A stretch of 64,000 nucleotides of DNA, filler included, from Sphacelaria rigidula (Eukaryota), in NCBI GenBank assembly GCA_964200075.2. It is 4 parts of 4 records of this genome, joined end to end, with 100 filler letters (N's around TTAATTAATTAA, not from the genome) between each part and the next. Parts side by side here need not be neighbours in the genome. Positions count along the whole stretch, not along the records: positions 16,042 to 31,968 come from CAXNAA020001547.1; 3 more parts are not named here. The stretch is one strand, 5' to 3'. The translations under genes were made by a program, and so were the position numbers. Numbering within the stretch: the first letter of the stretch is position 1; every line of letters starts with the position of its first letter. Below the pieces are notes generated by a model that searched no databases, had not been told where the DNA came from, and worked only from the letters and a program-made list of their open reading frames with translations. Shown piece after piece: positions 3,749 through 47,578 of the stretch.

Positions 3749-4113
3749 TTTATCCAAGACTTCCAACATGATCGTCGAGTCGCCACGCGCTCGCTCTGTT
3801 ACGAAACGCACACTGTCCAAGACTCCCCACATGATCGACGAGACGCTACGCGCTCGCTCTGTCGCGGACCGACCACTGTCCAAGGCTTCCGATATGATCG
3901 ACGACACGCTACGCGCTCGCTTTATCGCGGACCGACCACTGTCCAAGACTTCCGACATGATCGACGAGACGCTACGCGCTCGCTCTGTTGTGAAACGCAC
4001 ACCCTCTCGGAGTTCCAACATGTCGGACGAGTCGCCACGTGTTGCCACCGTCGTGAAACGCAAACCGCTTCAGGCTCCTACCGCGGCTATTGACTCACCC
4101 CGCGCTCGCGGTG
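3749..4113 (+). repeat. 63-bp (21-aa) tandem repeat, ~5-6 copies, in the 5' ORF of element A
   Basis: Units SKTSNMIVESPRARSVTKRTL / SKTPHMIDETLRARSVADRPL / SKASDMIDDTLRARFIADRPL / SKTSDMIDETLRARSVVKRTP, then two degenerate copies. Confidence 0.9.
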
Positions 4114-6321: not shown

Positions 6322-7849
6322 ATGAATTCCGATACTTGTAGAGAAGCGTCTCGTGTCGCTGCCATAAAGCGAGAGTACTTACAGATGGATTTTAAGAAAC
6401 TCTTGCATATCAAAATCATGCGTGCTGCAGACAATGACGACTCTGGCCAGTCTACGTCTGCTCTCATTCCCTCAATGCGTCGAACCATGCGCAACATCCT
6501 TGAGTTGGCCGATGCAACTGCTCAACAACGTTTCGAATACTCTGACTGGGTTGATGGATGACAAACACCGCTTCATACACGGGTGGCCACTGGGGTGCCT
6601 GTAACCTCAAATTCGGACGTTACAGACCTTGTGCAACGTCTGTAACGTCCATATTTGAGGTTACAAGTACCCCAGTGGCCACCCGTGTAAGGCTTTGCAC
6701 CGCTCAATCAGCCGTCGCTCCCCTGACGTTGTTGCCTCTTTGACGCAGATTCTCGACTCCTTCTTCGCCGCAAAGGATCAAGATTGTGCCGGCGGACAAA
6801 CAGCGCCGCTATTATTCAGCAATTTGGAAAGGCGTTTCATAGGTTCTTTTGATAAGTCTGATCAGGCAGGCGCCATCAAGTGCCTCAGTTCCTTCGCCGT
6901 GGCAACAGACGTGCCCTTTGCTGACCACGTCCGCGAATTCAAGCTATTGCTGTCAAATGTGACCGGTACCGGGCGACAGAATGGCCCTAGTAATGCTATG
7001 TGTCAAACATACGTTCGCAATAGTATCGCTCAGCAATTTCCGACGCTGATGCCGTCTTTGTTTCCGGGCGCTTTGACGCACAAAGAGGTGCCTTACGCCT
7101 CCATGGACGCGATGTGGACTGCGTTCGTAGATCAAGAACATAATTTGACGCCTGCCATCCGTGGCACACAGTGTTCTTCTGGGTCTTCGCAGACCCTGCG
7201 TGCCGCATCCGCGAGTACCTCCGGATCTCGTGGACGCCCTCACACTTTGTCCAGGAATACTTGGACACCCAACTCTGTCGGTGGATCGGTCATGTCTGTT
7301 CATAGCAAAAAAGACCCGTTTCGTGCAAGCTTCGACGCTTGGCCTTTTTCGGCAGACACTTTTGATGACGTTTATGTCATTTCCACAACCGCTTTCATCA
7401 CCGATGACCCACATTTGTGGACCCCCTTGTTTTCGCCTTCGGCTCGCAAGGATATTATTCGTCGCCATGTTAACACATGCATCAACTGCAATGGTACTGG
7501 CCACAGTATGCGTGACTGCCCTGAACCTTGCATCAATATTTTTTCGCTCATGAACCCTGAACTTCAAAGCAACAGGCAGGCGTGGCGCCGATGGCAAAAA
7601 CGCATGCGCGAGTATTGTCCACCTTCTCGCCACCATCGCCAACCTTATCACAATCAAAGCGACTCTCGCTCAAATCGGGACCGCCGCCACACCACCAACA
7701 CCGTCTCAGGTACTCGCCATAGAGATTGTTCTTTCCGCCCTTCTCAGTCTTCGCATGGTCATCACCATCGAACGGGGCCGACTCACGACAACTCAAACCC
7801 CAATACCAGAAACCCTGGTTCTTTCATGACGGATCGCAACGACCCATGA
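6322..7849 (+). pseudogene. gag: Gag-like core of element A with CX2CX4HX4C zinc knuckle (disrupted)
   Basis: CINCNGTGHSMRDC. WVDG and QFPTLMP blocks align with element C gag (WVDGW, QYPSLMP). Contains stops and frameshifts. Confidence 0.8.
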
Positions 7850-11700: not shown

Positions 11701-13964
11701 TGTTTGGTTGGCTCTCCGGCGGAAGGACAACTTCGAGAATTTCTCGCTAGCTACTCTTACCGCAATTGGGCTCGCGACCAACAACAGGAACCGCTCTGTC
11801 CTGCGATAATGCGGTTCTTACGGCTTAACTGCCCCACCCCTTTCCCGGCTGAAATCCTGACTCCCGTGGGCATTCTACCCGCCCCCACCGCCTCTGACGT
11901 GCTCGAGCTGGCACGCAAAGGTACTATCTTCGCGACGGACGACGACGCTCATTTGCTTGTTCGCCGATTCCACTCAAATTTGGACACGGCTGCCACAGTA
12001 ACCACTGCCACTTCGGCACAAATGCGTCTTAACGCTCCTATCCGCATCTATGTCCCCATCATGATGCGTCCAATGGTCATGAAAGGCTGTCACTCTGATT
12101 TGTCCCGCCACTTGGGCGTCACGCGCACGTTAGCGCTCCTTGAACGCTTTCATTGGTGGATCGGCATGGAAACATCCACGCGTTATTGGGTCCGACAATG
12201 TTTCAAATGGCAGGCTCGCCAAACCTCTCCACAGACTGTATGATGGCCGGTGATTTCCATGGAGCTTCCAAACGCTCCTGGTCACTTCGTATCGTTTGAC
12301 TACTTCGGCCCTTTACCCCCAACTGACCGTGGTAATACCTACATTCTACTTTTCACAGAGCGCTTCAGCCGTCACGCGGCTATGTATGCTGTTACTGTTA
12401 GCAATTTCACTGCTACCGGCACCGCGGACATCCTCGTCCATGACTGCATTAAGCACTCTGGCTTCCCGAAACGGCTCCTCTCCGACAATGGTCAACAATT
12501 TTGCTCCGAACTCTCGGATGCTTTGTACAAGCTCCTAGCCATTCGCAAAATTGCCACGAGCGCGTACCACCCCAACGGTAACGAGCGCGTATAGTAACGG
12601 TGAGACTGAACGTGTGAACCACACGATGGCTCAAATGCTATCCATGGTCGTAAACGACCGACAAAATGACTGGGACCTTCACCTTTCGCATGTCATGCTG
12701 TCTTACAACAATTCGGTTAACGCGGCTACGGGCCTCTCGCCCAACGAACTGCATCTTGGACGCTACCCTCGTCTGCCCATCACCGGTTTCGAAAGACGTA
12801 CCTTCGATGGTCACCAAGATCTGGACCAGGATCAGCTGTCCTACCACGACCTCGCCCGCGCTCGTCAGCGCAAGGCTTTCACTTTGGTGCGCGAACAACA
12901 CGATATCAACGCCTCACGCCTTGAAAGATCCAATACCGCCCTCTACAACTTGATGCACAAACGCCCTACTTGGAAAATCGGCAATTGGGTCTGAATCTAC
13001 AACCGTTTGTCCACCATCCGTCAAGGCGCTGACCGCACTGCCCAGGCAACAGTCTTGAAGACGAAACTGTCCGTCAATTGGACGGGTCCGTTCAAAATTC
13101 TCGTAGTCGGACCCTCGCCGACATCTCCTGACGGCAAGCCCGTTGGCGACAAACTCCTCTACCTCGATTTCACTTGTGACCTTCAGGGGCACGATGCTAA
13201 ATCTCGCGTCTCTGTGCAAGCCTTGCACGAACCCGCATGATACTACTGACATGCCTCAATACTTGCCTGCAGGTCTCTCCCAATACGTGCTCAACAGCTA
13301 CTCGACAAGATCTCCACCGTACCACGTTACCACCGATGGCATGACTGAAAAACCTCTCCGCTTGGCCGTGTCCCACATTTTCGGCCACCAAATCGCTCGA
13401 GGTCCTGGCGGCAAAATTCCCATTATGTACAAGACCCACTGACAAGGTCTTCGGCGTGCGTCTTGGGAACGCGAGTCCGACCTTCAATTGCACCGTCGTG
13501 CTATCCTTCTCTATTGGACACAATCCCCACAGCAACAGCTCGCTGACAACAAGGGATATCGCAACATGAGACGCCGCGCCGCAGCCCGCGAACTCCACCG
13601 CGACAAAGGACTACGTTTTGTAGCCGATGGTTACGAATTCGTACCCATCAAACAATGGGACGAAAGGATTCGCGCAAAACAAGAACCGCTCCCTAAAGGT
13701 GCCTACTTGTGGTATAAGGGCAGCGATTACCTCTGGTGGCTAGGTCAGATCCACTCCGTCGATACCCTCGCGACCGACACGTACATCGCGCGTTTCCTCG
13801 ACGATCCTGGACCCGTTCAGCTCAAGCTTCGCCCCGATTTATACACGACCAGCCCCTCCGCACCCCGCGGCTCCTGGTGCCTACAACGCTTCAAATCACA
13901 CGGGCTACGCCGAGATCTTCAGCGCAATATCGATCGTACACACGACATCAATGCACCATCTTAA
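8800..13964 (+). pseudogene. pol: Pol of element A; several stops and frameshifts and a deletion in the RT C-terminus near 10545
   Basis: PR, RT, RH and IN motifs present. LSRLRTH runs directly into VIRPITDLLKK, lacking the LLGH...LSYYR segment present in element C. Confidence 0.92.
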
Positions 13965-16913: not shown

Positions 16914-17183
16914 TGTGACGCCGGCCAGAAGAAGAACTGGTGGATCACTGCTGGTGAGGGACTCCCCAGTCTCACTGGTCTCATTTTCAGTTGTGAGCCT
17001 TTACAACATCTCATTATCAGTAGTGCTCTTCTTGTAGGCACAGCCTCTTAGACGCGCAGGGTATCATCCCCGTGTCCCCGGTCATTATCCAGAATCCTCC
17101 CAGAATCCTCCAGAATCCCCGTGCCCCCAGTCATTATCCCGGTCACCACTACCAACTCAACGTAACGGCGTATTTCTGTCACA
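16914..17183 (-). repeat. 3' LTR of element B
   Basis: Direct repeat of 22194-22460, adjacent to the PPT. Confidence 0.95.
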
Positions 17184-17257
17184 GCACCCCCGAAGCGCGT
17201 TGGACGAAAATCGATCAACAAGCTTCACACATAAAAAACGCCAAAGCGATGAGTAAG

Positions 17258-20200
17258 TCACAACTGAACACTAAACTCACGCGTAATGCGAGCAGCAACG
17301 GCACGAGTCACGCGCAATTCACGCAACTCCTCCGTGAGAAATTCCGGGGCGGCCTCAAAAATATCCTTGAAAGGCTCCCTCATATGTTCCTCAACTTCGG
17401 AACCAACCCAGTCGACCGACACGATCAACGAACGATCGTCTGCTTCTACCACTTGGATAATACCAGCCATCTGAATTGCCCCTGATCAAAAGCGTGCTGG
17501 AACATGTTCTTAACGTCAGCCGTAAAATTAAGCTGCGAGTCTGCAGAAAAACACAAACGAGCTACATGGGCGGTTTGCACACGACCCAAAACAATGTTCT
17601 GAATCTCAAACACGTGCGGGTGGTGAGCACCTACCACTCTCCACGGACCAGTCCAGGTCGCCATCAACGTGGGCTCAACCCCCGGACGACGCACGCGTGC
17701 ATACAAGACACAGTCGGCCATCTCAAAATTCGGCAGTACCAGCCCCGACGAGGACCCCTCATGTCCACGCGCACGTTCAGTGGCAATACGCTCCTGCACT
17801 TGAACGTGGAAACGTTCTTGCAAGTCCAAGACTCCTTGCAATGCACACTCAATTTAAGCACCATCCAAGACATTACAATTCCATTCTCCCGCCGACGAAG
17901 ACGCCAACACCGAGAAAGACGTCCGAGGTGGACGACCAAACATGACGTGGTACGGCGGACTATCGTGACGACGACGATACGTTGTATTGAGCTCCCACTG
18001 CACCGCAGGCAACACGTCCACCCACTCGGAAACCGCTCTACGCTGCTGCTCAAGAAGAATAGAGCGAACAACACGAACTACTTATTTGACCATGCGTTCG
18101 CACGTGCCGTTAGACCACGGAGAATACGCTACCACAAACTGGTGGTCAACGTGCAAAGCCTCTCGCAATCGGACCAAGATCGCATTCTTGAAATGCGTGG
18201 TGGTATCACTTACCCACACACGCAGCACCCCCAAAGTTTTGCATCAATATAGTAAAGATGCAGCAGTCGATTCAGCAGTACACACTGCTACTGGTTTCAG
18301 AGACACGAAGTTGCTCAAATCATCCGTGATTACCAAAATGTTTCGAAACCCAGCATCCTCCGACAAACGATGGGGAGCTAGCGGGCCACTCTCGCCCACG
18401 TACAAGAAGTAAAAAATAAACGACTTTATTCGGCATGGTCCCATGGACCGTTTCACCGAGCGGGCGGGGAACAACACTGCCCGCCCTCGAGTCAGCACAG
18501 TGAAGACACTGGCGCACAAATTTGCGCACATGAGTTTCTATCCTCTGCCAGACATAAAACGCTTGCAAGCGCACGAGCGTCGCAGTCACACCACGATGCC
18601 CGGCGTCGCGCATATGCGCGAAAATCATCCGACGTACCTGCAACTGCTTGCCAGAACTCGGAATCCACAAAATGCTTCGACCACGCACACATGCACACGA
18701 AACAGATCTTCATTGTCCAAGATGGTAGTGCCAACGTCCGACTTGAAAGGTTGCACATCCGCATCTTCGGCCCCAAGGTATTTTCGTTGCGCTTTGTGGA
18801 CAAGAAATTTGGATGGCATCGAGTCATCAGGTTCACACGGACCATACACAGCCACAGCGCGCATAGGCAAAGGCGGAATATTCACCCAACGCGAAAGCAA
18901 GTCACCCTACGCGTTACGGTCACCCGAAATATGGCAAATCGAGAAACAATACTGGCCAAGAACACCTTTCAAACCCTCCAAACGTTGTGCCAACCCCTTC
19001 GACACAGACGCAACGCACGCTTGCGGGTTGAAAATATACACGAGATTTCGGTAATCCGTGAAAATGTGCACGCCATCTCACAGAAGATGCTCGCAACGAC
19101 GAAAAGTGTCCACGATAGAAAAACTTTCCTTGTCAGTTGTGGCCTAACGCAACTGCAAACCCTTGAAACCGCTGAGGAAAACCAGCGGTTCATGCGCCAT
19201 ATCCTCGACCGGCAAGCGTCGTTGCATTTCAATTTTAGGCACCTGCGTGACAAAACTACCCCAACGGCACTCAGATACATGCAGAAACATCAACACCTGA
19301 CAATCAGGACGATGATGGAACAGCGTCACGGCGTGAGCCACCAGATCCTTCGCTGCCGCGCACGCCTGCAGCCTGCCCCCCGTCCACGATGCAGGCGGAA
19401 TAGCCCGTTTTTATGCAACACACTTCGTCCGCCTCGCAGCACCCGCCACAAGTTCTTCGAGGAAAAAAATGCAAGGGAGGTACGGTTTCTGCCATACGCG
19501 GCAACGAGGTACGCAACCAAGTCATGGCCTGCAGGAATTGCATGAGTTCTGCGGCCGTCTCCGGGCAGTGCATGTTAGACAAGCCTCGCAATCTGACAGG
19601 GTCATGAGATACGCGTCCGTGTGAGTACACTTTCCCAAACCACACGAGTTCACTGGCGAAGAATGTGCACTTGTGCGCAGCCGCAAACAAACCGAAACTT
19701 TCTAAACGAGCCAAGGTATCATCAAGCGTGTCTTGAAGTTCGTCTTCCGTGTCCGCAAAAAACAACACATCATCCACCCATATCTTGCATTTTTAGCTGA
19801 CGAGCAGTTCTGTCATGATGCCTTGAAAATATGCCGTGGTATTCAGCACGCCTTGCGGCACTCGCTTTGGAGTAACCAAGCCAAACGAAGTCGTGAGTGT
19901 GAAAACCTCCTGCGCCTCCTCCACGAACGGCATCTGTCAGTAACCTTGGAGGAAGTCCAACTTACCAAAAAACGAGTGCTTAACAGATCATGCATGTCCG
20001 ACTCTTGGTTGGATTTCACACCCGGCGACTTCTCAACCTGCTCATTCACTGCCTTGTAGTCGCTTACTAGACGAAACGAGTCTTTCTTCGGAACCGCCAT
20101 AGCCGGACTGGACCACACCACCTGCAAGTTCCGGAACACCAACCCGAGCGCCAAAAGAGCCGCCAAGCACGATGCCAACCAACTCGACTTCACCAGATCG

Positions 20201-21849
20201 TACCGCCGCTGCTTTGTCTTCACCGCGGACGCCCCAGGTTTTAGCTGAACACGCATGGGCTCCGCGCGCGCAGGGGGATCACCCCGCAGCGCATGACGAA
20301 ACGCGTTGACGCGGCGATGCAATATGCCACGCAGACGCTCCGCTTTTGGGACGCTGAGGCCTTTCGCCACAGCATCCGTCACGCTCTCCTCCAGCGCGAC
20401 CTTCCGAGCGGACTCCTCTTTCGCCGGATCCATAAACATCTCCGGGCGGCGCTCCACCAAGCGTTTGACCGCCGCATCCCGCTCCTCGGTCACTTGCCCC
20501 CTAGCCTCCTGAAAAGCATCTACCGACAAGCTCACGCGATGACTGCCCAAAATGGCGGGCGTCTCCACGTGTGGACCATGCGGAGACATCCGCGCCTTCA
20601 TGAAGTCCCACAACCGCGCATACGGGTCGACTCTAAGGTCCTGAAGCGTCAGCAACCCCAGAAGAATGACACCATCCGACCCTGGCATGATCGCGAACGA
20701 GATCGGAGGCAACGGCGTCGGCCCCCAGGAAGTCGTGAAAGTCAGCTGTAGCGGAACAGTACGCTCTGTGACGGAAACATCCTGACCCGACGCGGTGACG
20801 GCCTGCCGCGCCCCGAGCGAAAACGGGATGCGCAGCGGCACATCCGGGAGAAGACGCTCCAACATCTTTACAATCTGCACCGACAGACTCACATGACTCG
20901 TGAAGTGGGCGCCAGAATCCAACACAGCCCAAACCGCAATGGCTCCACGCTCCCATTGATTTGGAGGATACAGCTCCGCAGGAACGTACTTGTCCGCAAA
21001 CTCTACTAGCACTCTATTCGCCGACCGATGCGCCGCTAATCCCACTTGACGCCACGGCTGCGTAGGCTGCGTAGGCTGCGCAGGCTGTGCACGTGAAGAC
21101 GCCCCGACAGATTCAAACGGCACCGCCGTCGGGCACGACCCCCAGCCAGCAGACCAAGAATTTGGCGAAACTCCGACCAGCGCATCAGCAGGCGTTGCGT
21201 CTGGCGCTGCTGCCGGTGTCGTCACCAGCGCCACCACCGGCGCCGGCGCAGTGTTCGACACTGTAGAAATTGGTTCCACCTGCACCGCGCGTTGTGGAGC
21301 AGCAGCACCTATGTCGGCGCCGGACCCAGAACGAGACTCATGCTGACGCCGCTGCTCCTGCTGCTGCTCTGCTGCTGCTGCTGCTGAGGACTCGCCTGCG
21401 ACTCTCCACCGCCGGAGGATCCGCCGCCGCCACCACGCCGATCTCCTCGTCCTTTGCCCTTGTGGACGATGCTGATGGCGCGTGGCATGAGACTGCCCAG
21501 ACTTTCCACCGGAAGACGTTGGGCAATCGCGCGCAAAATGGCCGACCTGGCCACAACGGTGGCAAGTGCTCGCCGCATGCCCAGCATGCTTCTTGATTGC
21601 CGCAATCATTTCCGGCGGGGTGGTTGTGCTCTTACCATGTTCCACACGAACATACACTCTTTTCATATGCCTCGGCACCTGTTGAGCCATCGACACTACC
21701 TGATGTCGCACTGCACCCTCTGCGTTAGCGTGCTTCACACGCTTACTGTACTCCACGTACTTGGTATAGAAAGTGCGAGATGTACTCTCGGAGTACATAT
21801 GCCCGTGTTGGTGAGGTCGCACCTCTTCCCGCATGACCACGGGCATCAC
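17258..21849 (-). pseudogene. gag-pol of element B, frameshifted
   Basis: ORF fragments 19843-21849 (gag, PR, RT N-terminus), 19304-19777, 19144-19341, 18320-18688, 17446-17841 (WTGPWRV) and 17258-17470. Confidence 0.9.
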
Positions 21850-22193
21850 GCTGGACGCACTACGTGAGCCGATCGCTAAAGCTGCAGCTGGCTACCTGCG
21901 AACCTTTCGCAGGCCAGCGGATCTTCGCGAATTGCACACTTCACCCTTGCTTCGTCGCCGCACCACACAGCCGTAGAAGCCTCCAAACTCCCGCTGCACG
22001 CAACTTCAGCAAGTTTCCAGTCTGTATCAATCACAGGCCAGCCGCTATCTGTAGCTGCCATCAGCTTGAGCCTCCTCCACGCGTCCGTGATGCTTCAGGT
22101 TGTCCCCAGCTACCGGACTCCTCCGCCAAAAGTCTTCCAGCAGGTTCTACTAGCTAATAGCCCTAGCTCTAGCACTAAGACTATTATCGATAT

Positions 22194-22460
22194 TGTGACG
22201 CCAGCCAGAAGAAGAGCTGGTGGATCACTGCTGTTGAGGGGCTCCCCAGTCTCACTGGCCTCAGTTTCAGTTGTCAGCTTTTACAACATCTCATTATCAG
22301 GAGTGCTCTTGTAGGCACAGCCTCTTCGACGCGCAGGGTATCATCCCCGTGTCCCCGGTCATTATCCAGAATCCTCCCAGAATCTTCCAGAATCCCCGTG
22401 CCCCCAGTCATTGCCCGGATCATCACTACCAACCCAACGTAACGACGTATTTTTGTCACA
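22194..22460 (-). repeat. 5' LTR of element B
   Basis: Direct repeat of 16914-17183. Confidence 0.95.
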
Positions 22461-22811: not shown

Positions 22812-22945
22812 ATATATATATATATTTCCTCACACTTTGAACCCCTCCCCTTCCTCGGGATGAGTCCGTGGTCTCCAGGGAACAACCCATCTCTCCCCCG
22901 GTACGTGCCTTTCATTTTGGTCTCGCGGATTGGGTCAGCACGCGT
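22812..22945 (-). mobile_element. SINE-like 3' fragment with (TA)n tail
   Basis: Minus-strand GTGCTGACCCAATCCGCGAGACCAAAATGAAAGGCACGTACCG aligns to the SINE core at ~38535-38590. Confidence 0.5.
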
Positions 22946-22949
22946 GCGC

Positions 22950-25900
22950 CGTGCATACCTAAATTTGGATCTCAAGTTTGTGGGCAAGGTCAAGCCTCTC
23001 TTGCGTTTCTAGTGGGATCAGACGTAGGTCTGTCGTGTAGTCAACTACGGCAATCCTTAACAACCGTGATGAGCGATATTCTGTCAATCTGTGATAATCA
23101 ATTCGTCGACCTGCAGTCTAGCACATGGGTCGACGGATGGCTCCGTCCACTACACCGAGCACTCGAAGGTGCCCTCGACTTTAGTACTCCACAAGCTACG
23201 CAGTTGTCTACGATGTTTGACACTCACTTCGACCAAGTCGCTCGTAACCTCATGCTCGGTACACGCGGATATAAGGCTTTCACGTCACTACTCAGATTGA
23301 TCAGTTCATCCCTTGATACAAGCTATGAAGGTGAATCAATTGAACGCCTTTTCACCTTCAAGGTACCGGTGGATACGCCATTCGACCAGTATCTCAAGGA
23401 ATTCCGTACGTTGATTTCTGTTATGGTTGACGGGGGTCGTGAGCTCGCCCCCACGGAAGAGATGGTGATGAGTATTTTCCATTCCAATATGGGACGACAG
23501 TATCCTAGCCTGATGCCGACTGTATTTATGGGTGAGAATGCAACCGTTTCAGTTCCAACCCCTGACCTCGATAGTATGTGGAGGCAGTTTGATGGATTGC
23601 GGTCAAACCGGACTCCGGCGATAGATGTGACGGATGCGAAGCAAAATGGCACCCCTGCAAGCGGTGGCACTGCCAAGGCTTCCGTCACTCCACCGTCTTT
23701 CGGTAGCTGCACCTACTGTGTCACGATCGCAGCCGACACGCCCCAAAGCGCGCCAGCTTGCGTGGATTCCTGGGTCCATGTCCACTACTGGTGAGGTCAT
23801 GTTCACAGCTCCTTTACAACACCCTGACGCGTTTGCCAGTCAATTCCCCAGTTGGCCCTTTGCGGCCGAAATTTGGCCTGAGGCTTTTCAAGTTAGCACT
23901 TCCATGAGCAACTCGGATCCCCCCCTCTGGGCTCGGGGCGTAGACCTTAACCTAAGGTCTGAATTGATTCGCAACTGTAAACACCGCTGTCTAAACTGTG
24001 GTATTTGGTTCGACGAACAGACGGGATACTCTGCGGACGGTCGCGTTCCGATGCACTCCATGCGCAACTGTGAAGAACCTTTCACGAACGCATTTGGTGT
24101 ACTTAACCCGATGTTCCTTGACCCACAATATTCACACTATTGGTGGACTTGGCAAGCGCGTATGCGTTCTTACCGTCGCCCTCAATCTGGCGACGGTCGC
24201 ATTTCACACCAACGTCCAAGGCGCGGGAATCGCCACTATGGTAGCGAATCCCGCGCACCCAACAACCAGTACCAACAACCCTACTATCAGACTCAGCAAG
24301 CCAACGCTGGCCGCTCGAGCCTGCCCCCCCTCCTCCTGGCGCTTTTCATCCGCAAATGCAGACTCAGTCACAAGATGTTCGCCAACCGCTCACAGCGTGA
24401 AATGCCGCACCAGCTGAACTCCGCCAGGAAGAGAACCGTTCCTCCACTGATGCTAAACGCACCACCTGACGGTGTTTTGGAAATGTAGAAATCCCCGCGT
24501 TTCCGAATAGAAAGTGGTGGGGTAACCCCGAGTGTGCGACAGCTGACTTCACAAAGCTGTCGCCCTCTACATGTTCTAATTAGACTCCGCGTCTATTCCC
24601 CATTGTCCGCCACAGGCCCACATTAGGGAACCAACAATTGACGGCAACACGCCGCGGAAGTGCCCCCCCTTTTTCTTTCGCTCGGCCAGTAAACACACAT
24701 CACAACACTGAATCAATGTCGTACGGCACAGGTTCAGGTTTGTGGTGCGGGTACACTGGGCTCGATCAGACTGTCATGATGGGTTTCATGGCAGCAGAAT
24801 CCCGTGCATCATTACATGACTCTCAACTGCGCAACGACCAACCCCAGTGTTTCAGTTCTAGGGCTGATCACCTAGTTTTACCTCCAAGTGGTATTAATCA
24901 TAGCCAGTTGGACCCTTTCTCCCCGCGGGATCGGCAGTCATGTAGTGTAACACCTCTCGCCTCCGAAACAGGTACATCTTTTGTCGCGGTAGCTGTTACC
25001 CCCGCAACGGTCCATTGCGGGACAAAACAATCAAGGCCACACACCAGCCCCCAAGCATGCTTAGGTGCCAAGCCGACCCCTCTTACACCCACAAACGAAA
25101 TAACGTCGGTGCTCGGTCCCCTTTTATTTGGTGAGCGTAATTTTTCGAGCACGGAGCGCAACCGTGTCGAACCCTGGCTTTCCGTCGCTCAGCGGGTTGG
25201 GAAGGAACCCCAAGTAACAGCGCGGGTGGAGCGCCACGAGCGTAGCCAAAGGCGGACTGTCCTTGACCAATTCCCAATAGCCCCCGGAGCAGCCAAACCG
25301 TTGGTGCGCTATACGCGTCATCCTCGGCGGGCTTCTCCAGAGGACCCTGTAAATAACCCTGAACATACAGTTGCATCCGTCCGCCGAAATCGTGAACGGG
25401 TGTGGGTTTTGTCAGATGAAAGCAATTCTGTCGATCAGGCCGGTGTTTCCCAGATTTCGAACAGATCAACACTGCTCCCTGTCGACCCCTCACACACTAT
25501 GTTAGAACCCACTATAGCGTTGTCATCTGTTGGGTTACATACCTCGCTGCCAATTGGGCGTTCGCTTCCTTGTCATGAAACCCCCCCGTCTAGTTCGTCA
25601 TCACAAGGGAAACGTGGCATAGTGACCGACGAGCCGTCCACGCTTGACTGCTCGTCCCCTATTTTACTAACGTCGTCCCCCACTGAGACGGGTAGCGAAT
25701 TGACTACTGTAGCCAACTCGCCTTCACCCTTTGACGAAACGTCCCCTTGTTTGTCTCCACTTCATGCTGTACCTTCGCCAGCTTCGCAAACAGGCGCTTC
25801 GCCACTTGTTGCGGCCGACCGAGGCATGTCAAACCAACCCCATCAGTTGTCGCGGCCAGCCACGACAACTACCCTTCCCAGGCATCATCCATCCCTTACA

Positions 25901-28900
25901 GTATACGAAATTCAACACTCGACCGATCCTCCAACAATTGCGACCGACACTCCGTGCTCCAACCCACCTGCGGACAGATATCTTGCTCCAAAGGATCACC
26001 AACGTGTGTATTTCAGCACAACCGCTCACAATCACAAGCACGGGTTGTCCACAGATTTCTTGCCAGAATTTGGACCGGATCTAGTCAGCGGTACTGCAGT
26101 CATGGATGATGCCTCCTTCAAAAAGAAGATAGGTGTACATAGTGGAATGCACGCAACATGCCCTTTATTAGCTGTTGCGTTGCCCGATTCAGGCTCGCCT
26201 CAAACGTTCATCACCACCAGCTGCTGGCAACAAATGATCAACGCGGGGGCTGCGGATGCACATTGCGTTTCTACGGTTCCCCCTCGTGTTCTCGGCGGGT
26301 TTGGTGTTTCCCCTTCACTTACGGTTAATCGATCAGTGAAACTTAGTGTGCAATTTCTCGATGACACGGGTCCGACTGCGCGATTATCTGTATGGTGCCC
26401 GATGGTTCATTGTCGGTTGATGTTTTACTGGGGCGGGGTAGTTGGCTACGGTTTTCCACTCATACGTACACGTCAGACACACCTGTTCCGCATCATCCCA
26501 AGACTGGCAGGTTGAAATTGGGATATCACGACACTGCTTCGGGGGCGCATGCCTATGTCGATGATCCAACACAAACAGGTGATTCCTTCCGACTATACTA
26601 TGTGGTGACAACGTAACCTCCTTATCCCTTGAACCCCAACTCACACATGTGAACCTTGTGAGACGGAATGGACCCCCTGCCCTCACTGGGTAATACTTGG
26701 TCGAACTCATCAAACGCGATAAACCGGCTGATGATATAAGCACCTTCGATCAGACCAAAGTATTCGTCCACGAAGGTAGATAGTCCATTCCTCTCACGTC
26801 CTCTGCATGTTTCGATTTACTCCCCGGGCAGTTGTTGGGTTTTGCTCAGGCGCCCCTGCTACGGACAGGCTTGTCAAACGTGCGTCTGGCAACCGAACGG
26901 AAAATGCCACCAGACACCTCGATCAACGCGGACTCTCCGCCGTTCGACAAACCTCGCCCGATGGTAGTGAACGATGCGTCTAACGCACCTGACCCAAACC
27001 CCTCAACTGCATTGCTAGATAGATTATCGCCAGAGCAACGTGTTAGTTTCCAACGTTTGTGGGACGATATCCCCCCACATTTGCGACACATTGCTTTTGA
27101 TCTATTTGGTGAGGGTTGGACCACCACGGTGATCGATAGGCTCCGCGCCATTTTGATAAGATATTATGAACGATTTTACACAGCGCCCCTAGATCTCGGC
27201 CGCTGCACCACTACACCGTTCAAAATCAAAATTTCTGATGGAACGCCACCTATCGCTACTTGTCCGTACCGTACAAACCCCCTTTTAGCGGATACAATTC
27301 GTAATCCTCGACGGATACTTATCCGCCGGTTAATACCGCACTCAACGTCCCCGTGGGCCTCGCCGCTTGTAGTCGTCCGGAAGAAGAACGGTAAGATCAG
27401 ACTGGCGGTCAATTACCAACGATTGAACGCAGTCACCAAAATCGCACGTCTGCCTCTTCCCCGGATAGATGAAATCATTGACTCTCTCGGCGGGGGTAAA
27501 GTATTTTCGAACTTTGACATGCAGTCCAGCTACCACCAACTTGTGATGGATCCGCAATCTATAAAACTGGCGGCGTTTTGTACACAGTCAGGCCTGTGTG
27601 AATGGTTGGTGACACCACAAGGTGCCGCCGGCGCCCCCGGGGCATTTCAACGTGTGATGAAAGCACCCCTTCCGAACATATCGAATACTTGGCATCCTTC
27701 TTCGCTCGCTTCGAACAACACAACTTGAAACATGCCCCGTCTAAATCCCGCATTGGAGCGACTAGCATCGAACTCCTGGGCCACTGTATCACTCCTGAAG
27801 GTCGTAGTCCAAACCTCAACAAGGTTGCCGCGCATACAGATATGACCATGCCACGGGATACATCCCAACTGCGCTCCCTGCTGGGCGGTTTGAGCTACTA
27901 CCGACAGTACTTGCCGAACCTAGCCCAAACCCTCAAACCTCTCACCTTCCTTCTAAAAAAAGGAGTGAAATTCACGTTCACCTCGGAAATGGAGAAAATA
28001 GTACGTCAAGTACTTGACACCCTGTCGCGACCACGAATCTTGGTTTTCCCAGACTGGTCGGCCGCTGAAAAGGGTTCACGTCCATTCCGACTTCACACGG
28101 ATTCCTCCAAAACTGGGTTTGGCTGCATGTTGGAGCAGGACCAACCAGATGCTAATATTCGCCCCATTGTATACTTGAGTCGAACCACCTACCCAAACGA
28201 ACAAAACTGGTCGGTCATGGAGCAAGAGGCCGGTGCGATTGTTTGGGGAGTTCGACGTCTCCGTCAGTACTTGTATGACATTCCGTTCGTGATTTATACA
28301 GATCACAAGTCTTTGGAAAACCTCGCCAAAATGGTGGAACACAACGCCCGGGTCCAACGCTGGTTTGAAATCCTGTCCTCTTACAACTTCACCCTGAAGT
28401 ATCGAACAGGACCTCAAAACGCAAACGCTGACTTTCTGTCTCGCTTGCCCATCCCGGCCCAACCCATCGACAGCTCCGCCTTGGGACACATCAGGGATCC
28501 CACCGAAGACATTGTATATTTCATTAGCAGAAACGATCATAGCGGTATCTACTCACCTCTATCACTGAACAACAACTCGTCACTTGGCATGGATGGGCTG
28601 ACGACTACAGCTCACGCTTCTGTACTAGGCAGTATGCCACTTCAATCGTTGTGTTCGGTTTGGAGTGGAGCTAGCACAAACCGGAGCGGGTATGATCAAT
28701 TTCGTGCAACTGGTCATCGTATGGCTTGTGCTTCAGATATAGAACCGTCTTCGTCCTTCCGGTTCAGGTGCGAAATCTCATCTCGAGTAGAACCGGGGGG
28801 CGACGGGCCGCCGAAACGGCCGCCACCCTGGCGGCCGCTGGCCTGGGCCTTCCTATCCCAAGTCCCATCCCGGTGCCCGATAGTTTCCTTGCACCCCCTC

Positions 28901-31900
28901 ACCCACCGCGGCGCAAGGCCCCCAAAAGATCGACTCCATCCACGGCATCCCTTCCTACCATATCCGAAGCTTCGGCTTCGCCCCCCTTCCCCGGTGATGA
29001 TGCGCCCACTGATGCCTCATCATCCGATGCGCTAGTCGACGTAGGATTTGAAGACAATGTTCCGCTTGAAAGTACACTGACTGATTCCCCCGCGCATGAT
29101 CCAAATATCCCCGATTCGAGTCAACATCACCGTGACACGAACCCATTCATTTTGGAATACCCGTCGGATGGTGTATTTGAGGAACGTTTGACCCTTCTCT
29201 CCCATGCCGATTGGGCCAGAGAAAAACAAGCTGAACCTGCTTGTAGAGCAGCTATGCAGTATCTATCCAAAGATTGTCCGTCTCCTTTTCCAGCGACCGG
29301 ATTCCTCTTGCCCGTTGGGAACCACAAAGCCCCCACACAGGATGAAATTACTGAACTATCGCTGAAAGGCATGCTTTATACGGATGATGATGGTGTCGTT
29401 CTCTTGGTTCGTCGGCCCACAGCGCCCCTTCGTGTGGGTAAACCTACCAGTAAACGCGCCTGCTTGTTAGGTGATGACCCCACACGAATTTATGTGCCGG
29501 TGCTGCTGCGCCCGTGGGTTCTCCATGAGTGTCATTCGCAAGCATCGACACATCTAGGAGTTGCTCGGACCTCCCAGATGGCTGAGCGTTTTTATTGGTG
29601 GATTTGTATGGACCAGTGTGTACGTTGGTGGGTAAGGCATTGTCTTTTGTGTCAGGCGCGAAAAACCTCACGTCAGACAGTTCGTTGGCCGATTGTTTCC
29701 ATGCCCCTCCCAAACGGGCCTGGTGAAGTAGTTTCGTGGGACTATTTTGGCCCCTTGCCCCTGACGGATAGTTGTCATGAGTATATTTTGTTGTTCACAG
29801 ATAGATTTAGTCGACATGCGGTGATGCACGCCGTCGCGGCCAGTAGCTATGACGCGGAAGTTACCGCCAACATTCTTGTATACACGTATATTCCGCACTG
29901 GGGTGTGCCCAAACGATTGTTATCCGATAACGGCCCGCACTTTGCCGGCAAGCTTTCTGCCGCGATCAGTAACATCCTGGGTGCCCATCGTATTTTTACA
30001 AGCTCATACCATCCATCCACAAACGGTGGGACCGAACGAGCGAACCATACGATGGCTCAAATGCTTACAACGATGACCAACGAACGAAAAACGGACTGGG
30101 ACTTGCATTTGCCCCTCATTCAGATGAACTACAACAATTTAGTCAATACCGCAAGAGGATTCGCTCCCAATGAAGTTCATATTGGTCGTATGCCCAGATT
30201 GCCACTTACTGTGTTCGAACGGAAACCTTACCGGGGCCATCGGAGTTTGAATAGGGATATCGCGGAGTACCATATTTCTGTTAGTAATCGTCTTCGTCTA
30301 GCGTATGAGGTAGTACGCGAGCAAAACCAGATTTACGCAGCGAAAGTAGCCAGGGCAAACACTGTGTTGGATGATGCGGTCAACAATCGTCCGGTGTGGA
30401 AAGTAGATCAATGGACATGGGTGTACAATGATGTGAAGACTGTAACTCAGGGGGTTAGCTCCAATAAGTCGTCGTTGGATAAGGTGTTAATGCCGAAACT
30501 ATCCTTGAATTGGACTGGCCCCTGGAAGATCTTGGCGGTTGGGCCCTGTGATGCCGCACCCGACAATAGTCCGGTAGGCGAGAAACTTTTGTATTTGGAT
30601 TTTCCCACTGATGAACCTGGCATCAAACCCAAAAGCCGAGTATCGATGTTGAGGTGTAAACCGTGTCTGCCCCCGCATGATGCATCTGACATGCCCAGGC
30701 AATTGCCAATGGGTCTCAGTCAGTACGTGTTGACCAACTATGCGGCCAAAGTCCCCCATATCACATGACGGTTGAGATGCCAACGGGCCTCTTGAGCGAG
30801 TAGTGGTAGATCGCATCTCGGGCCATCAATTAGTCCGAGGTCGAGGAGGTGAAATAGCGGTTATGTACCAGACTCATTGGAAGGGTATCATGCGTGTTAC
30901 ATGGGAGCGTGAAGTTGACTTACGTCACTTTCGTCGGGAAATATTGCTGTACTGGGTAGGAGATGCCGTCCAACACCGCCCGTTGAATAAGAGATATAGG
31001 TCGATGCGCAAGAGAGCTGCCGCTCGGGAACTGGCACGAGAGCACTCGGCGTGGTTTGTTGTAGCAGGATACAGCCTTCTCTCGCGTTCACAATACTTGC
31101 AGTCTTTTCATAGACAACGCCTGCCGAAGGGAGCATATTTTTGGTGTAAGGCTTTGGATTCCCTGTGGTGGTTGGGTAAGATTCATTTGGTCGATCCTGC
31201 ATCTGATAACTCCTACTTTATTCGTTTCCTCGATGACCCGAGCCCCCTTAAGATGTGCTTGGATGATGCGTACTACACCGAGGAGCCGACCGCTCGGAGG
31301 GGATCCTGGTGCCTCCAACGACACGATCAAGGCGAAGTCGACACAGGCGTTCTACGGAACACGGACACCGCTTGGGATGCAGATGACTCATGATGCCGCA
31401 TCCGAGTCTGCTCCCCCAATCACCTTGCGTAGTGTACCACGTTCCAGTCGCTTGTCTTGCACCGTAACGTCGTTGGCAAACCATATGTCCCCCCCACCCA
31501 TTCATTTGTTTTCGTACTGATAAGCCCCGTATTTGTAGTGATTGTATGTTGTGTTTCGTATTTGGCATTTGATATTTGGTTTACATATATATTTTCTTGT
31601 GTATTGTTTCTTTTTTGGCTTCGGACCCTGATACTGTGTTTTGTTTTGTTTTTGCCTTGGCGTCATTTCGTTTGGCTTTGTTTTTGTCTTTGTTCTGTTT
31701 TTGTTTTCCCTTTTTCTTTTCTTTTCCTCTCGCGTCGTGCTTTGTGTTCGATTTTTTCTTGTGTTCAATGTCCAATGAGTAACTCTTGGTTATTTCTGGG
31801 TTCATCTGGCAAAGTACAAGTGATGACCGTTCCATTCCTGACCCCCGAGTCTGAAGCCTTGAACCTCCGTCCTCCGCGCCGTACATTCACGACCATTCGA

Positions 31901-31968
31901 GTGATGCTACGGTAGGGGTACAGAAATAATTTCTGAGATTTAAATTGTTAGGAGCCCCTTATCTCATC
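22950..31968 (+). mobile_element. Decayed Ty3/Gypsy retrotransposon C, same lineage as A; LTRs not visible, 3' end cut by the gap
   Basis: Gag 22950-24488, DSGSPQTF ~26185, RT SPWASPLVVVRKKNG, RNase H LHTDSS/YTDH, integrase HLGV..CLLC/WDYFGP/SDNG/TERAN, chromo- and Tudor-like C-terminus ending at 31393. Confidence 0.93.
26000..31393 (+). pseudogene. pol: Pol of element C; RT YxDD segment deleted near 27660
   Basis: GAFQRVM joins directly to the APSEHIEYL segment, with the region equivalent to A's TDGLEHVIMYLDD missing. Several stops and frameshifts. Confidence 0.9.
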
Positions 31969-43100: not shown

Positions 43101-46100
43101 CACGTCATGTACCATGGCATCCGGAGTCGCAAAACCCCTGTTATACTGTACTGTACTGTACTGTACTGTACTACACTGTACTACACTATACCGTGTTGTA
43201 CAAGGCACGATGCATGACAATGATGGCTGTATGATGAAGAGCTCCGTCCTCCAAACTTGCGACGCGCACGAATCATGCTCTTTGTGATGCACGCTGCATG
43301 CAGCCTCTGGTCACATGTAAATAAAATGGACTGTGTTATGTCCTCTACACGCGTAGACACATGTGCAGTAAGTAGCCGTAACTGGTTTGACTCCACTGCT
43401 GTATGTAGCCGTTGATGAGAGGAGAGCATCTGCATTGACGGCAGCATCATACTGTACCACACCGACTACACTGAAGTACGTATGGATCCTGTGCAGTGCA
43501 CCACCCAACTATGCCTGACGTACGCTAAATACTGCCTCGGAAGGTACCGTTGGTGCAGAAGCGCTAGCTGAACGCAAACCAACTGTGGTTCATGAAAATG
43601 ATATACACAGTGTAAAGAAGTGCTTTGGCTTCAAAAATATGTCACATGGTGACAGGGGTTTCTCGTGCGCTGAAATCTAGTGGTATACATCCGCACAAAC
43701 CCTCCGGTGTCTATACAGACAGGTGTGTTTCTGTCGGATCAATTTCGACAAAAAAAAAACACTCGCTGTCCACACGTGTTCATTCAAACCTTCTCGCGGC
43801 GAATACGTTTCATCCCTCTCGGCGCCCGTGCTTGTTGTTCCAAGCATTTGTCCTCTGACAGTCTCGAGAGCTCTTGGAGAAAAATGATCTGTTTGCAAGC
43901 GCAGATGAACGCCAGCTAGACATGGGCGTGCTCAACGGAAATGTATCAGGTCTTTAGCGTGTGCTCACAGGATGGAGTTCGTCGCAACCGTCAAGTGGCC
44001 GATGTCATGCCGCTAAACAAGGAAAAATACTGACCAACCTGAGCGGGAGCAAAAAACTCAGCTCAATCTCTCTCAGACACGCAGGACATGAGATGATTGA
44101 ATGCAATTTGTTATCGTCGCCCGTCCTTGTCCAATGCCCGCATCTCTTATCCCTGGGGATCCTTGGTACGCGGTATCGTTTTCGTCCTCTTTTCGTTTGC
44201 GGGCAACACTTGAGCATGGTTTCTTCAGGGGGAACTTGTAAAAGTTACGAGCAAAATAAGCTCATATTTCTCGTCACTTGATCTCTTACGAGCGGGCCCG
44301 TGCTGTATTTCGAAGAGGCGGGGGAAAGAGGGGGAAATAGTGTGCAATATTTCCCTCAATTTGTGTGGTATTGCACGCCTACCTTGGGTAGTCGTTGCTG
44401 GGTGCGACCATTCAAATTTTTGAGATTTCGCGCCCTTGTTGTCATGTCCGAGGCCAGGATGTGAAAGCTTGTGTAGTGTCTTATAATGCAAGATTATGGG
44501 TGAAGTTGGCAGTGCGCGCGCGAGTTGTCCTTATGTTGTGGTCTATCAAGTACACCAGTTAAGTGCGTTGTAAATACAACCTCATCAGACTGTGCGATCA
44601 TACTAAACGAACACGAATACACGCATATACATGAGGCTACACATGAACAAGGTATCTCGTAAGCACATTAGTATACGGTCACACAGTTCAGCAAACCTAT
44701 CGATCATATGGTAACAGTGCGCTAGCTCGCCAGAACAGCGGAGAAGCACGATAGCTATACTGTACAGTACAGCATCGTTCGCAAATCATGGATAAGATTT
44801 TTTGTCCTCAAACCCAACCTTTGTACACCAGCGACACTTCCATGTTGCACACGTGAAAGCATCCATGGAGTCAAGATGTTACACGTTCAGAACCAAACCT
44901 GAACCGCGCGGCGGATGATCTGGGTGTTTACAGACAATGCTTGTACCGACTTGTGTGCTCTGTGGTATATGTCGTACTGCTAAGCAGAGGATGCCGTCTT
45001 ACCTCTGTACCACTGATGATGATTCATGTAACAGACGGGGTCGTGCGATTCGCGAGAGGTCGGAAGTGGGTAGGCAATTGTGGAGACCAGCCATGAAAAT
45101 TACTTTTTCTTCGTTGGAGTGAAAGTGTTTCTCGTGGGTGTGAAGATGTCCGCCTTGGTGAACGGTGCGAACTTCACGTCACCCATATCCCTTTCGTAGA
45201 CTGCATCATCCCTTCGCCAACCGTCTACGAATTCGTGTTTGCGGGCGATTGACCCGTGCACTCGCATTTGTGCCCCTGGGCGGACACGGTGAGGTAGTCG
45301 CCGTGGTACCGCACCGTCGATGCTTCCGTGCATGGGCTATGACAAGTGCCTACACACTTCTCGTTCCTTATCGCCATCATCCACACCATTGGCAAAAAAG
45401 TGTCGTGAGAAAAAAAAAAGCGAAAAAAGGAAAGGAGCGACCTTGCCCATTCAGGTAGGTTCGTAAGCTTTTGCTGGGTCTTTTTTGCTACTCGTTATTG
45501 ATCAGTCTCATCGGCATGCCGGGATGTGAAATGCCCCTTGCGTGTTTACCTCGTCCTCTCACTCGTTTCGAACTTCTTTGTTCCCTCATGTCTACGTAGG
45601 ACTCCGGGCGTCCCAGCGTCATGGGGCTCCTGGCGGGCGCGGAAGATGCCGGTGTTTCGGTCGTTGTTGGGGGCCTCGGGGACGTAGAGGGGAGCATCGG
45701 CGCGGAAACCAGCACGCATGCCCTCATCAGGTATGTCGAGTTCGACCCCTTCACGTTGGGTGTTATTTAGCTGCCTGTTTTGCTGCTTGAGAGTGGAAGG
45801 AGGAGGAAGCAAAGATATGGAACATCGCACTTCACCATGAACAGTGACACACGATGACCTCGGTCGCCTATACGCTTCGCGCAAGAGTACCAACCACCGA
45901 AGGCGGGTGCCAATGACGTCCTCTTTGGGTCTTTCGCGCACATTTGGCGCACTCACTGCAGAACACACGAAGATTAGCAAAAAAAAAGAAGCGATGTACC
46001 AAAAAGACATGCTGTGTTCGTCGTGATCAAAGTTGAATGGATTGTTTCCAACCCTACACCATGAAATGAAAAACGAAATCTGTGCAGGGCGGCAGCCGTT

Positions 46101-47578
46101 CAGCACAACCGAATAGCCGTCGTTGTGGATCCGGAAGACCTATCCATGCTCGCCTCGGGGTCTCCGGCAGGCGGCGGCGTCATGCTCTCCTCCCTCGGCC
46201 GCCGATCGCTTGCGGTGAAGGCCCTGCGTGCCACCTCGGAAGCCGACAGCCGCATCGCAGCCGCACTGGCCCAAGAAGCAGCAGAAGACCCTGCTGTAGC
46301 GAGTGCCGCAACGACGGGCGCCGTGAAGGTCCTGGTAATCGGATCGGGCGGGCGCGAGCACGCTATCGCAACGAAGCTCGCCTCTTCTCCTCGCGTGACT
46401 CACGTCTACGCCGCCCCCGGGAATGGCGGAACGGGTGCGGCGTCCGGCGAAAAAGATGGTGCTTCCAAGATTTCCAATGTTGATGGCGGCGTGTTGTCGG
46501 TGTCGGATCACGCGTCGATCGTGGAGTTCGTTAAGGAAAACGGCGTTTCACTCGTGGCAGTCGGGCCGGAGGTGCCCCTGGTGGAGGGCGTCGCGGACGC
46601 ACTAACCGCGGCGGGTATCGCATGCTTCGGCCCCTCGAAAGCGGCCGCACGCCTGGAAGCTTCGAAGGCGTGGTCGAAAGATTTCATGGCGCGCAACGGC
46701 ATCCGAACCGCCCAGTTCGCGACGTTTTCGGACTTCGACGAGGCGTGCGCTCACGTCAAGGCGGTGGAGTATCCGGTCGTCGTCAAGGCTTCCGGGCTCG
46801 CGGCCGGGAAGGGAGTCTTGATGCCCACCTCAAAGGAGGAGGCGTTGGCCTGTTTGGAGACGGCCATGGTGAAGAAGGAGTTCGGCGATGCGGGAGCGGA
46901 AGTCGTCGTCGAGGAGTTCTTGGAAGGCGAAGAGGTGCGAGGCGAGAACATCAGAAAGCCAAGTCTTCTCGCAGTGATTCTTGTTTCGGTTCAAGTGTGT
47001 GGTGTCGTAGCCGAGGTGTACTTTCTCGAGGGCAGGCAACGCCTCTGTTGTGCTCATCTTTACCACAAAACCTGGCCAGATCCTCTCCTCGTGTCGGCTA
47101 GATTATTTATCCCTGCGCCCCCGCGCATCCACGCCCGTTTATCCCTTACACCTGAGACACTGCGCACAAATAATGATCATTTACCAGTTTGGGTCTCAGC
47201 AACCGTTTTGATCTCTCGTCGTTCCGTTCGAAATTTGTGCGCACACATGGACACACACGCACATGCACGCAAAAGGTTTCTATCCTGGCAATCTGCGACG
47301 GCAAGACGGCTGTGTGCATGCCCGGAGCGCAGGACCACAAGCGGGCACTCGACGGTGATCATGGCCTCAACACCGGGGGTATGGGCGCCTACGCGCCAGC
47401 CCCGTGCCTCACCCCGCGCCTCGCCCGCGAGTGCGCCGAGATATGCCAAGCTACCGTGACGGCTATGGGCAAAGAGGGATCTCCCTTTGTAGGAGTCTTG
47501 TTCGCTGGTTTCATGCTGACCAAAGACGGGCCGGTCACTCTGGAGTTCAATGTTCGAATGGGGGACCCTGAGACTCAG
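37193..47578 (+). CDS. purD: Phosphoribosylamine-glycine ligase (GARS) with N-terminal MGS-like domain, 3'-partial; exons 37193-37336, 45600-45730, 46088-46934, 47276-47578
   Basis: KVLVIGSGGREHA, APGNGG, VGPEVPL, LEASKAWSKDFM, VVKASGLAAGKGV, QDHKR..DGDHGLNTGGMGAY, EFNVRMGDPETQ. GT-AG phases are compatible. Exons 1-2 are less certain than 3-4. The C-terminal domain is lost at the gap. Confidence 0.9.
38361..38724 (+). mobile_element. tRNA-derived SINE in purD intron 1
   Basis: A-box TGGCTCAGTCGG (~38376), B-box-like GGATTCAAATC (~38419), ~290-nt body and (CA)-rich tail. Confidence 0.75.
39514..39696. mobile_element. MITE-like element, 183 bp
   Basis: Imperfect TIRs AGTTCTTCGCCTGATTTT / AAAATGAGGGGAAGAACT. 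Inner inverted pair TTTTTGCCCGGTGCCCATTTT / AAAATCGGCACCCGGCAAAAA. Partial copies at 1153, 15615 and 38298. Confidence 0.7.
40033..40415 (-). mobile_element. Retroposon (LINE/SINE) 3' fragment with (CAAT)n tail
   Basis: Tail shared with 35214-35345. Inner part 40320-40412 shared with 42268-42370. Confidence 0.65.
41790..42500 (-). mobile_element. Probable non-LTR retroposon 3' fragment
   Basis: Shares CCCAA.GGATTC.GGGCAGCA.AGTAGATACAGACACAC and CAACAACCGATA with 40320-40412. Internal (TA)n(GA)n. Boundaries approximate. Confidence 0.5.
43144..43190. repeat. (TACTG)n microsatellite
   Basis: Tandem TACTG units decaying to TACAC. Confidence 0.85.

Follow-up and report, generated by a model that had tools for sequence, protein, structure and literature searches.

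A putative tandem of chromodomain and Tudor-like barrel at the C-terminus of Pol in Ty3/Gypsy retrotransposons of Sphacelaria rigidula

Introduction

What is encoded behind the integrase of a Ty3/Gypsy retrotransposon in the brown alga Sphacelaria rigidula, and does it work for the element? Fusions of integrase and chromodomain are a known targeting device (PMC3059260; PMC11541908), and fusions of transposable elements to reader domains mainly involve Chromo and PHD (bioRxiv 2021.11.30.470311). The DNA analyzed here, the window, is a stretch of 64,000 nucleotides (assembly GCA_964200075.2) in which four contigs are joined via N spacers. Element A lies on the first contig and element C on the second. 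A sequence-only reading proposed that both end in a chromodomain, a Tudor/PWWP-like domain and an RGSWCLQR motif, that the linkers had diverged, and that the tail was under purifying selection.

Layout of the elements and their tails

Positions 30776-31393 (+) hold all of the peptides quoted in that reading in a single frame, directly after a Ty3/Gypsy Pol and collinear with A. The observation is confirmed. The segment is the C-terminal 205 or so amino acids of Pol of a brown-algal Ty3/Gypsy retrotransposon. RGSWCLQR-tail motifs occur elsewhere in the window in element A only. The features are as follows.

22841..24488, +, gag-like frames of element C; likeness to the zf-CCHC ORF of A (6659-7849) judged by eye
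26060..28384, +, protease region, reverse transcriptase (RT) and RNase H of element C, spread over several frames
29494..30015, +, H2C2 and rve core of the element C integrase (Pfam E 1e-13 and 2e-7)
30391..30690, +, integrase C-terminal GPY/F-type domain of element C (WTGPWKI)
30791..30961, +, putative chromodomain of element C, tail residues 6-62 (Pfam Chromo, Chp1 model match, column counts)
30962..31108, +, helical Arg-rich linker of element C, residues 63-111 (predicted helix 72-89; omega 0.35)
31109..31330, +, predicted Tudor-like beta-barrel of element C, residues 112-185 (PHF19 profile, Foldseek, omega 0.235)
about 31298-31324, +, GSWCLQ strand inside the barrel (strand 178-183 in the model)
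31391..31393, +, Pol stop codon of element C, where most of the printed copies in both families also end
31394..31898, +, non-coding 3' region shared by the C family, whose homology ends at 31898
13356..13964, +, homologous tail of element A on the other contig, with an in-chromodomain stop at 13440-13442

The Pol order of protease, RT, RNase H and integrase, followed by the tail, is that of Ty3/Gypsy (Metaviridae). A GPY/F motif is present after the integrase core of both elements, WTGPWKI in C and WTGPFKI in A. Between RT and integrase only RT_RNaseH families were found, with no additional archaeal-type RNase H, the trait that defines Chronos of oomycetes (PMC5348765). Both elements are broken. 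The tail of C is out of frame with its integrase ORF (break near 30750-30776), and A has the stop codon within its chromodomain. No LTR pair of A or C was found in the window, where the 3' region of C is interrupted at 31898 and the contig then ends. The interrupting sequence (31899-31968) is a different repeat that is present also in locus L166. Other copies of the C family continue past this point for at least 900 bases.

Copy families

A and C are decayed members of two families of at least about 150 copies each. In the 244 Mb genome, there are at least 151 matches to the tail of C (1,166 candidates, 150 scored; 68-91% identity) and at least 150 to that of A (1,081 candidates, 150 scored; 70-93% identity). 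Of 100 fetched copies, 92 span integrase core to tail. Core and tail share one frame in 62 of the 92 and are stop-free in 19. In both families, the end of the tail most often lies 1134 nt from the integrase core. Given the in-frame copies and this shared modal spacing, the tail is the C-terminus of Pol.

The two tails are collinear, with 50% amino acid identity over 175 aligned codons; elsewhere A and C are 59% identical in the integrase core and 50% in RT. The linker was said to have diverged strongly. This holds for its sequence (38% amino acid identity) but not for its length, which the spacing shows to be held, and it is constrained (omega 0.35). The chromodomain contains an RGRGG hairpin. 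Throughout loci L034-L060, the subfamily of A itself, this reads RGPGG; sister subfamilies retain RGRGG. The closest named protein is from Sphacelaria rigidula (88%), and further named relatives are found in Ectocarpus and Nemacystus and, by cluster, in Pylaiella. Contigs of three runs also cover the tail. The RNA origin of these runs is only guessed, so they are silent on expression.

Selection on the tail

The tail is under purifying selection, as had been proposed. A codon model was applied to 41 copies, hand-picked across the clades of a 94-copy tree. It gave omegas, which include post-insertion decay, of 0.22 for the chromodomain, 0.35 for the linker and 0.235 for the barrel. The whole tail gave 0.265 and the integrase core 0.278, against 1.74 and 2.05 when the tail was read in shifted frames. 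An omega of 1 was rejected (2dlnL 216, 271 and 563; kappa taken from a grid). Tail and integrase core are equally constrained, which shows the tail to be a working part of Pol but does not show it to be special.

For A and C themselves, no pairwise omega is given because synonymous sites are saturated (pS 0.76, pN 0.36). Their tail DNA is 58% identical (49+/-1% when shuffled). A 400-base stretch further downstream (+100..+500) is 51.5% identical (51.2+/-1.7% when shuffled), so the tail is better conserved than its non-coding neighbor.

It is extremely unlikely that the tail is a functionless passenger and the likeness of A to C a matter of descent only. Both window copies are broken and young pairs have a raised omega of 0.3-0.4, as a passenger might. 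Against this, omega falls to 0.12-0.13 between subfamilies, flanking DNA is at chance identity, and the selection tests refute it. These omegas come from non-independent pairs binned on integrase-core pS (0.38 in young pairs); bins on the tail's own pS were dropped as biased. In-frame stops also argue against a passenger, with 42 in 17,574 codons of the tail versus 452 and 764 in the shifted frames, a difference that is partly ascertainment because the copies were chosen by protein likeness.

Phylogeny and origin

The presence of the tail was mapped onto an RT phylogeny. The RT-RNase H search behind it was independent of the tail (120 of 803 hits listed), and the quick maximum-likelihood tree held 128 RT rows, with no Ec32 reference sequence and no labelled chromovirus among them. 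Both families, A and C, belong to a clade of 64 rows with an SH-aLRT support of 92, or of 99 once two long-branch sisters are included. The tail is confined to this clade, and no protein of the tree outside it had a tail-profile score. Sixteen clade proteins extend 170 amino acids or more past GPY/F. All of these have at least a partial chromodomain and 14 have the barrel; the two without it are automated gene models. Three Pols with Pfam Chromo fall outside the tail-bearing clade. The tail had been taken to define a family rather than a one-off capture. Conservation at the family level stands, but the two are not alternatives, as the pattern fits one old, vertically inherited capture. The best reading is that the tail was captured once and inherited with RT.

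A 49-row subclade that holds all NADAR-bearing Pols adjoins the A and C families, which branch outside it. Five of the six NADAR Pols that run far enough carry the full tail of chromodomain, linker and Tudor-like barrel. NADAR was not found in A or C, either in the window or in the copy loci. Thus, the tail may predate the gain of NADAR, or NADAR may have been lost. Genome-wide there are two NADAR matches on one contig, and the strong one has no RT in 3.4 kb. This sole strong match of the genome (locus L101, G000:C4) is in a host gene or a contaminant contig.

If Sphacelariales lie outside the crown radiation, the tail would be older than 160 My, the figure given for that radiation (bioRxiv 2025.12.07.692804). 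The sister Pol P0359 (metagenome; RT 47%) is collinear by eye over 165 columns in residues 1085-1290, to the final Trp. Its tail was not accepted as a homologue. Its score by itself is 18.2, when shuffled sequences go up to 17.7 and unrelated C-termini score 17-26; it is a lead only.

Predicted folds and aromatic cages

An AlphaFold2 model of the whole tail, made with 111 sequences, has a pLDDT of 91 and a pTM of 0.79. It begins with three strands and a helix, followed by a long helix and then by a barrel whose last strand is WCLQRH. Pfam Chromo matches 21 of the 111 homologues (best E 5e-6), and residues 6-62 align with the Chp1 chromodomain (Z 7.0, rmsd 1.7, 53 aligned). Residues 112-185 find the PHF19 Tudor by profile (E 0.006), and PHF19/PHF1 head the Foldseek list (E 0.0055, 31-33% identity). 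Folded alone, the barrel has a pLDDT of 89. Its best VIA match is the SH3-like domain of F-plasmid TraI (Z 6.7, rmsd 3.4, 76 aligned), followed by Spindlin-4 (5.9), AGDP3 Agenet (5.6), RDM15 Tudor (5.5), PHF19 (5.3) and a PWWP barrel (5.2). TraI is tied with the Spindlin and Tudor domains within about 1 Z. A five-stranded SH3-like barrel of the PHF1/PHF19 Tudor class is present in the model, as a fold class only (Z 5.3, rmsd 2.5, 56 aligned). None of the fold matches reaches Z 8 or E 0.001, and every row of an Atlas search with the barrel was under 0.9. A library-wide profile search gave 2,190 hits and no donor; the profile included integrase columns, so these hits are not tail counts. The assignment of the predicted barrel stops at "Tudor-like SH3 barrel".

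The definition of a PWWP domain includes a C-terminal helical bundle. Of the proposed Tudor/PWWP-like domain, the Tudor-like fold is retained and PWWP fits less well, as the motif reads L-W-W-L without Pro and only short helices follow the barrel before Pol ends. The RGSWCLQR motif had been placed as a separate unit after the Tudor domain, and in the model it is instead the last strand of the barrel. Its core is conserved, with S-W-C-L in 96-98% of the 111 homologues, but its first Arg is kept in 46% and its last in 18%. An origin of the barrel by duplication of the GPY/F domain in the element itself was also considered and found no support (hhalign probability 2%).

Judged by their alignment columns, both domains appear to have kept only about half of the aromatic residues of the canonical cage. 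The three cage positions of the chromodomain are aromatic in 2%, 89% and 4% of the 111 homologues. The central Trp is kept, and Leu is found at the first and third positions. The second and third positions were mapped on WKGY/WKGW of MPP8/Polycomb, and the first was placed partly by the usual cage pattern. With the three-residue cage incomplete, the domain is not type I (HP1-like, ECR-1). It fits the type II pattern, in which the first and usually the third cage aromatics are missing (PMC3059260). In contrast, another Gypsy lineage of the genome (loci L126-L147, related to element B) retains F/W/F at these positions.

The cage of the PHF1 Tudor consists of W41, Y47, F65 and F71, and loss of the W41 position abolishes binding (PMC7492083). 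The barrel keeps two of these four, W132 (95%) and F151 (93%), and D153 (97%) is also kept. The other two positions (126 and 157) hold a small residue and Pro, the fourth being mapped by count beyond the aligned stretch. Other aromatics of the barrel, W123, Y124, W131, Y147, Y167 and W178, are 90-98% conserved. At ten positions a basic residue is conserved in 75% of rows or more, with three sparsely defined columns excluded, and R75, R78, R84 and R88 of the linker are conserved.

Two rival roles could be imagined. The tail could act as an additional integrase domain of SH3 type would, binding nucleic acid or giving structural support to the intasome or particle rather than targeting chromatin. 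The incomplete cages and conserved basic residues would suit this, as would the structural tie of the barrel with nucleic-acid-associated SH3/KOW folds (TraI, Spt5) and the presence of Pfam SH3_VIII-1_N in 14 of 111 members. Sequence-aware searches nevertheless put the PHF19/PHF1 Tudor first, the barrel has no detectable likeness to GPY/F, and it lies behind a chromodomain, where targeting domains are known. We consider this role somewhat unlikely. The tail could also be a true methyl-mark reader with a pocket rebuilt from the six conserved aromatics, or lying between the domains, for a brown-algal repressive mark of the H3K79me2/H4K20me type. A pTM of 0.79 suggests that the domains pack together, H3K79me2 and H4K20me3 are repressive, and H3K79me2 covers transposable elements (PMC12477816; PMC13076208). 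Many of the candidate aromatics may be core residues, however, and the canonical pocket positions, 126 and 157, carry small residues or Pro. We consider such a reader unlikely.

Comparison with known elements

Four Gypsy lineages are described in Ectocarpus, three with chromodomains, including the NADAR-bearing lineage IV, and Gypsy-10 with a Tudor domain, which was called the first transposable element with one; they are reported as unrelated to chromoviruses (PMC12477816). Lineage IV (e.g., Gypsy-12_Ec32; Dinatale et al., 2025, PMC12477816) shares the RT clade and the C-terminal chromodomain with A and C. It has NADAR at the Pol N-terminus, whereas A and C lack NADAR and are NADAR-less relatives. 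The text of that paper, excluding figures and FASTA supplements, gives lineage IV a chromodomain only and no lineage both domains (PMC12477816).

Gypsy-10_Ec32 likewise has a brown-algal Ty3/Gypsy integrase ending in a Tudor-type barrel, and is a separate lineage in the paper (PMC12477816). The Sphacelaria rigidula genome holds a second Tudor-Gypsy (PF21743; 76 matches among 150 scored). Its integrase is 22-26% like that of the A/C clade and the tails have no profile similarity. This lineage is probably the counterpart of Gypsy-10. The published Tudor-Gypsy thus appears to be a lineage different from the A/C clade, whose Tudor-like barrel appears to be derived independently.

Loci L104-L122 (e.g., L118:1483-1929, -) belong to this second, distant Gypsy lineage, which ends in a PTM/DIR17-type Tudor after a conserved 60-aa stretch that is chromo-like by eye. 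The Tudor type of Gypsy-10_Ec32, cd20401, is the PTM-like Tudor. A chromodomain before the Tudor of this second lineage was not established. There was no Pfam Chromo or PDB hit, Atlas Chromo scored 0.85-0.87, and hhalign gave under 1% in a test that is weak, as it also failed to link two accepted chromodomain sets. If the 60-aa stretch folds as a chromodomain, this tail would be a convergent chromo and Tudor tandem.

Plant chromoviruses with type II chromodomains (Tekay, Reina, Galadriel) show the same loss of the first and third cage aromatics; unlike the A/C tail, they are not described with a second barrel in the available text (PMC3059260). Since the Ectocarpus lineages are reported as unrelated to chromoviruses, the type II pattern would be convergent. 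ECR and ECR-like elements are also brown-algal fusions of Gypsy integrase and chromodomain, but of a different lineage, with a single chromodomain and all three cage aromatics (PMC11541908; bioRxiv 2025.12.07.692804). Outside of retrotransposons, the PHF1/PHF19 Tudor is the best sequence and Foldseek match to the barrel (31-35% identity over about 50 residues). The positions of PHF1 Y47, F65 and D67 are W, F and D in the barrel, and those of W41 and F71 are non-aromatic. The barrel differs by an extra N-terminal strand and helix and by the extra C-terminal GSWCLQ strand. This likeness probably reflects fold class and not a donor.

A literature search, with most subscription papers and Repbase outside its scope, found no account of an integrase with chromodomain and Tudor in tandem. 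Earlier work covers the lineage and its chromodomain; the tandem with a Tudor-like barrel and eroded cages appears to be undescribed. In an abundant clade that reaches from Ectocarpales to Sphacelaria, this would mean that a Tudor domain was captured a second time, independently, and that the targeting module has two domains.

A proposed role for the tail

We put forward, at even chances, that the tail is a non-canonical chromatin tether for the intasome, acting through basic surfaces and a Tudor half pocket. The predicted order at the integrase C-terminus is GPY/F domain, chromodomain, basic helix and Tudor-like barrel, and the tail would stay on integrase after Pol processing. It would then tether the intasome to chromatin and bias insertion of the element. 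The Arg surfaces (RGRGG hairpin and linker helix) could contact nucleosomal DNA or the histone core, with a contribution from the half pocket of W132, F151 and D153. Classic reading of H3K9me3/H3K27me3 would not be the mode, as these marks are absent or scarce in brown algae. In Ectocarpus, H3K9 and H3K27 methylation are absent, and the repressive marks are H3K79me2 and H4K20me3 (PMC12477816).

A tether is favored by the fusion to Pol, selection, restriction to one clade, the folds, the cage columns, the known targeting fusions and the absence of H3K9/H3K27 methylation. Several points stand against it. Because loss of the W41 position abolishes PHF1 binding, a reader role may be gone altogether. 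The fold matches fall short of Z 8 and E 0.001, with TraI the best VIA match of the barrel. Three further species of the group were found to have H3K9me1 or me3 (PMC13076208), and one A subfamily has RGPGG. The assembly consists of 27,214 contigs and is too fragmented for mapping insertion targets.

The incomplete methyl-lysine pockets may point to an unusual choice of insertion site. With a predicted well-folded tail of 205 amino acids, the clade offers a candidate for how transposons reach safe sites without the usual silencing marks. A broader idea, which we regard as quite unlikely, is that bivalent chromo and Tudor tails were built at least twice, from unrelated Tudor donors, with pockets remodelled for a feature of genomes that lack DNA, H3K27 and most H3K9 methylation. 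That feature might be H3K79me2 or H4K20me nucleosomes, in which case the tail would represent a reader of a new type and could serve directly as a probe for brown-algal heterochromatin.

Other features of the window

Upstream of the coding region of A is a 63-bp tandem repeat of about 6 units (3753-4130), and at the start of its gag-like ORF is a 56-bp inverted repeat (6576-6689) that is 91% complementary with a 2-nt loop. A host purine-synthesis gene exon is present at 46065-47459, with GARS domains and a weak AICARFT/IMPCHase match before them. Element B (16914-22460, -) is a different Gypsy with 271-bp LTRs that are 92% identical, TG...CA ends and a 4-bp target duplication. It ends in a single chromodomain-like segment, and the element matches locus L146. 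Element B is a candidate ECR or ECR-like element.
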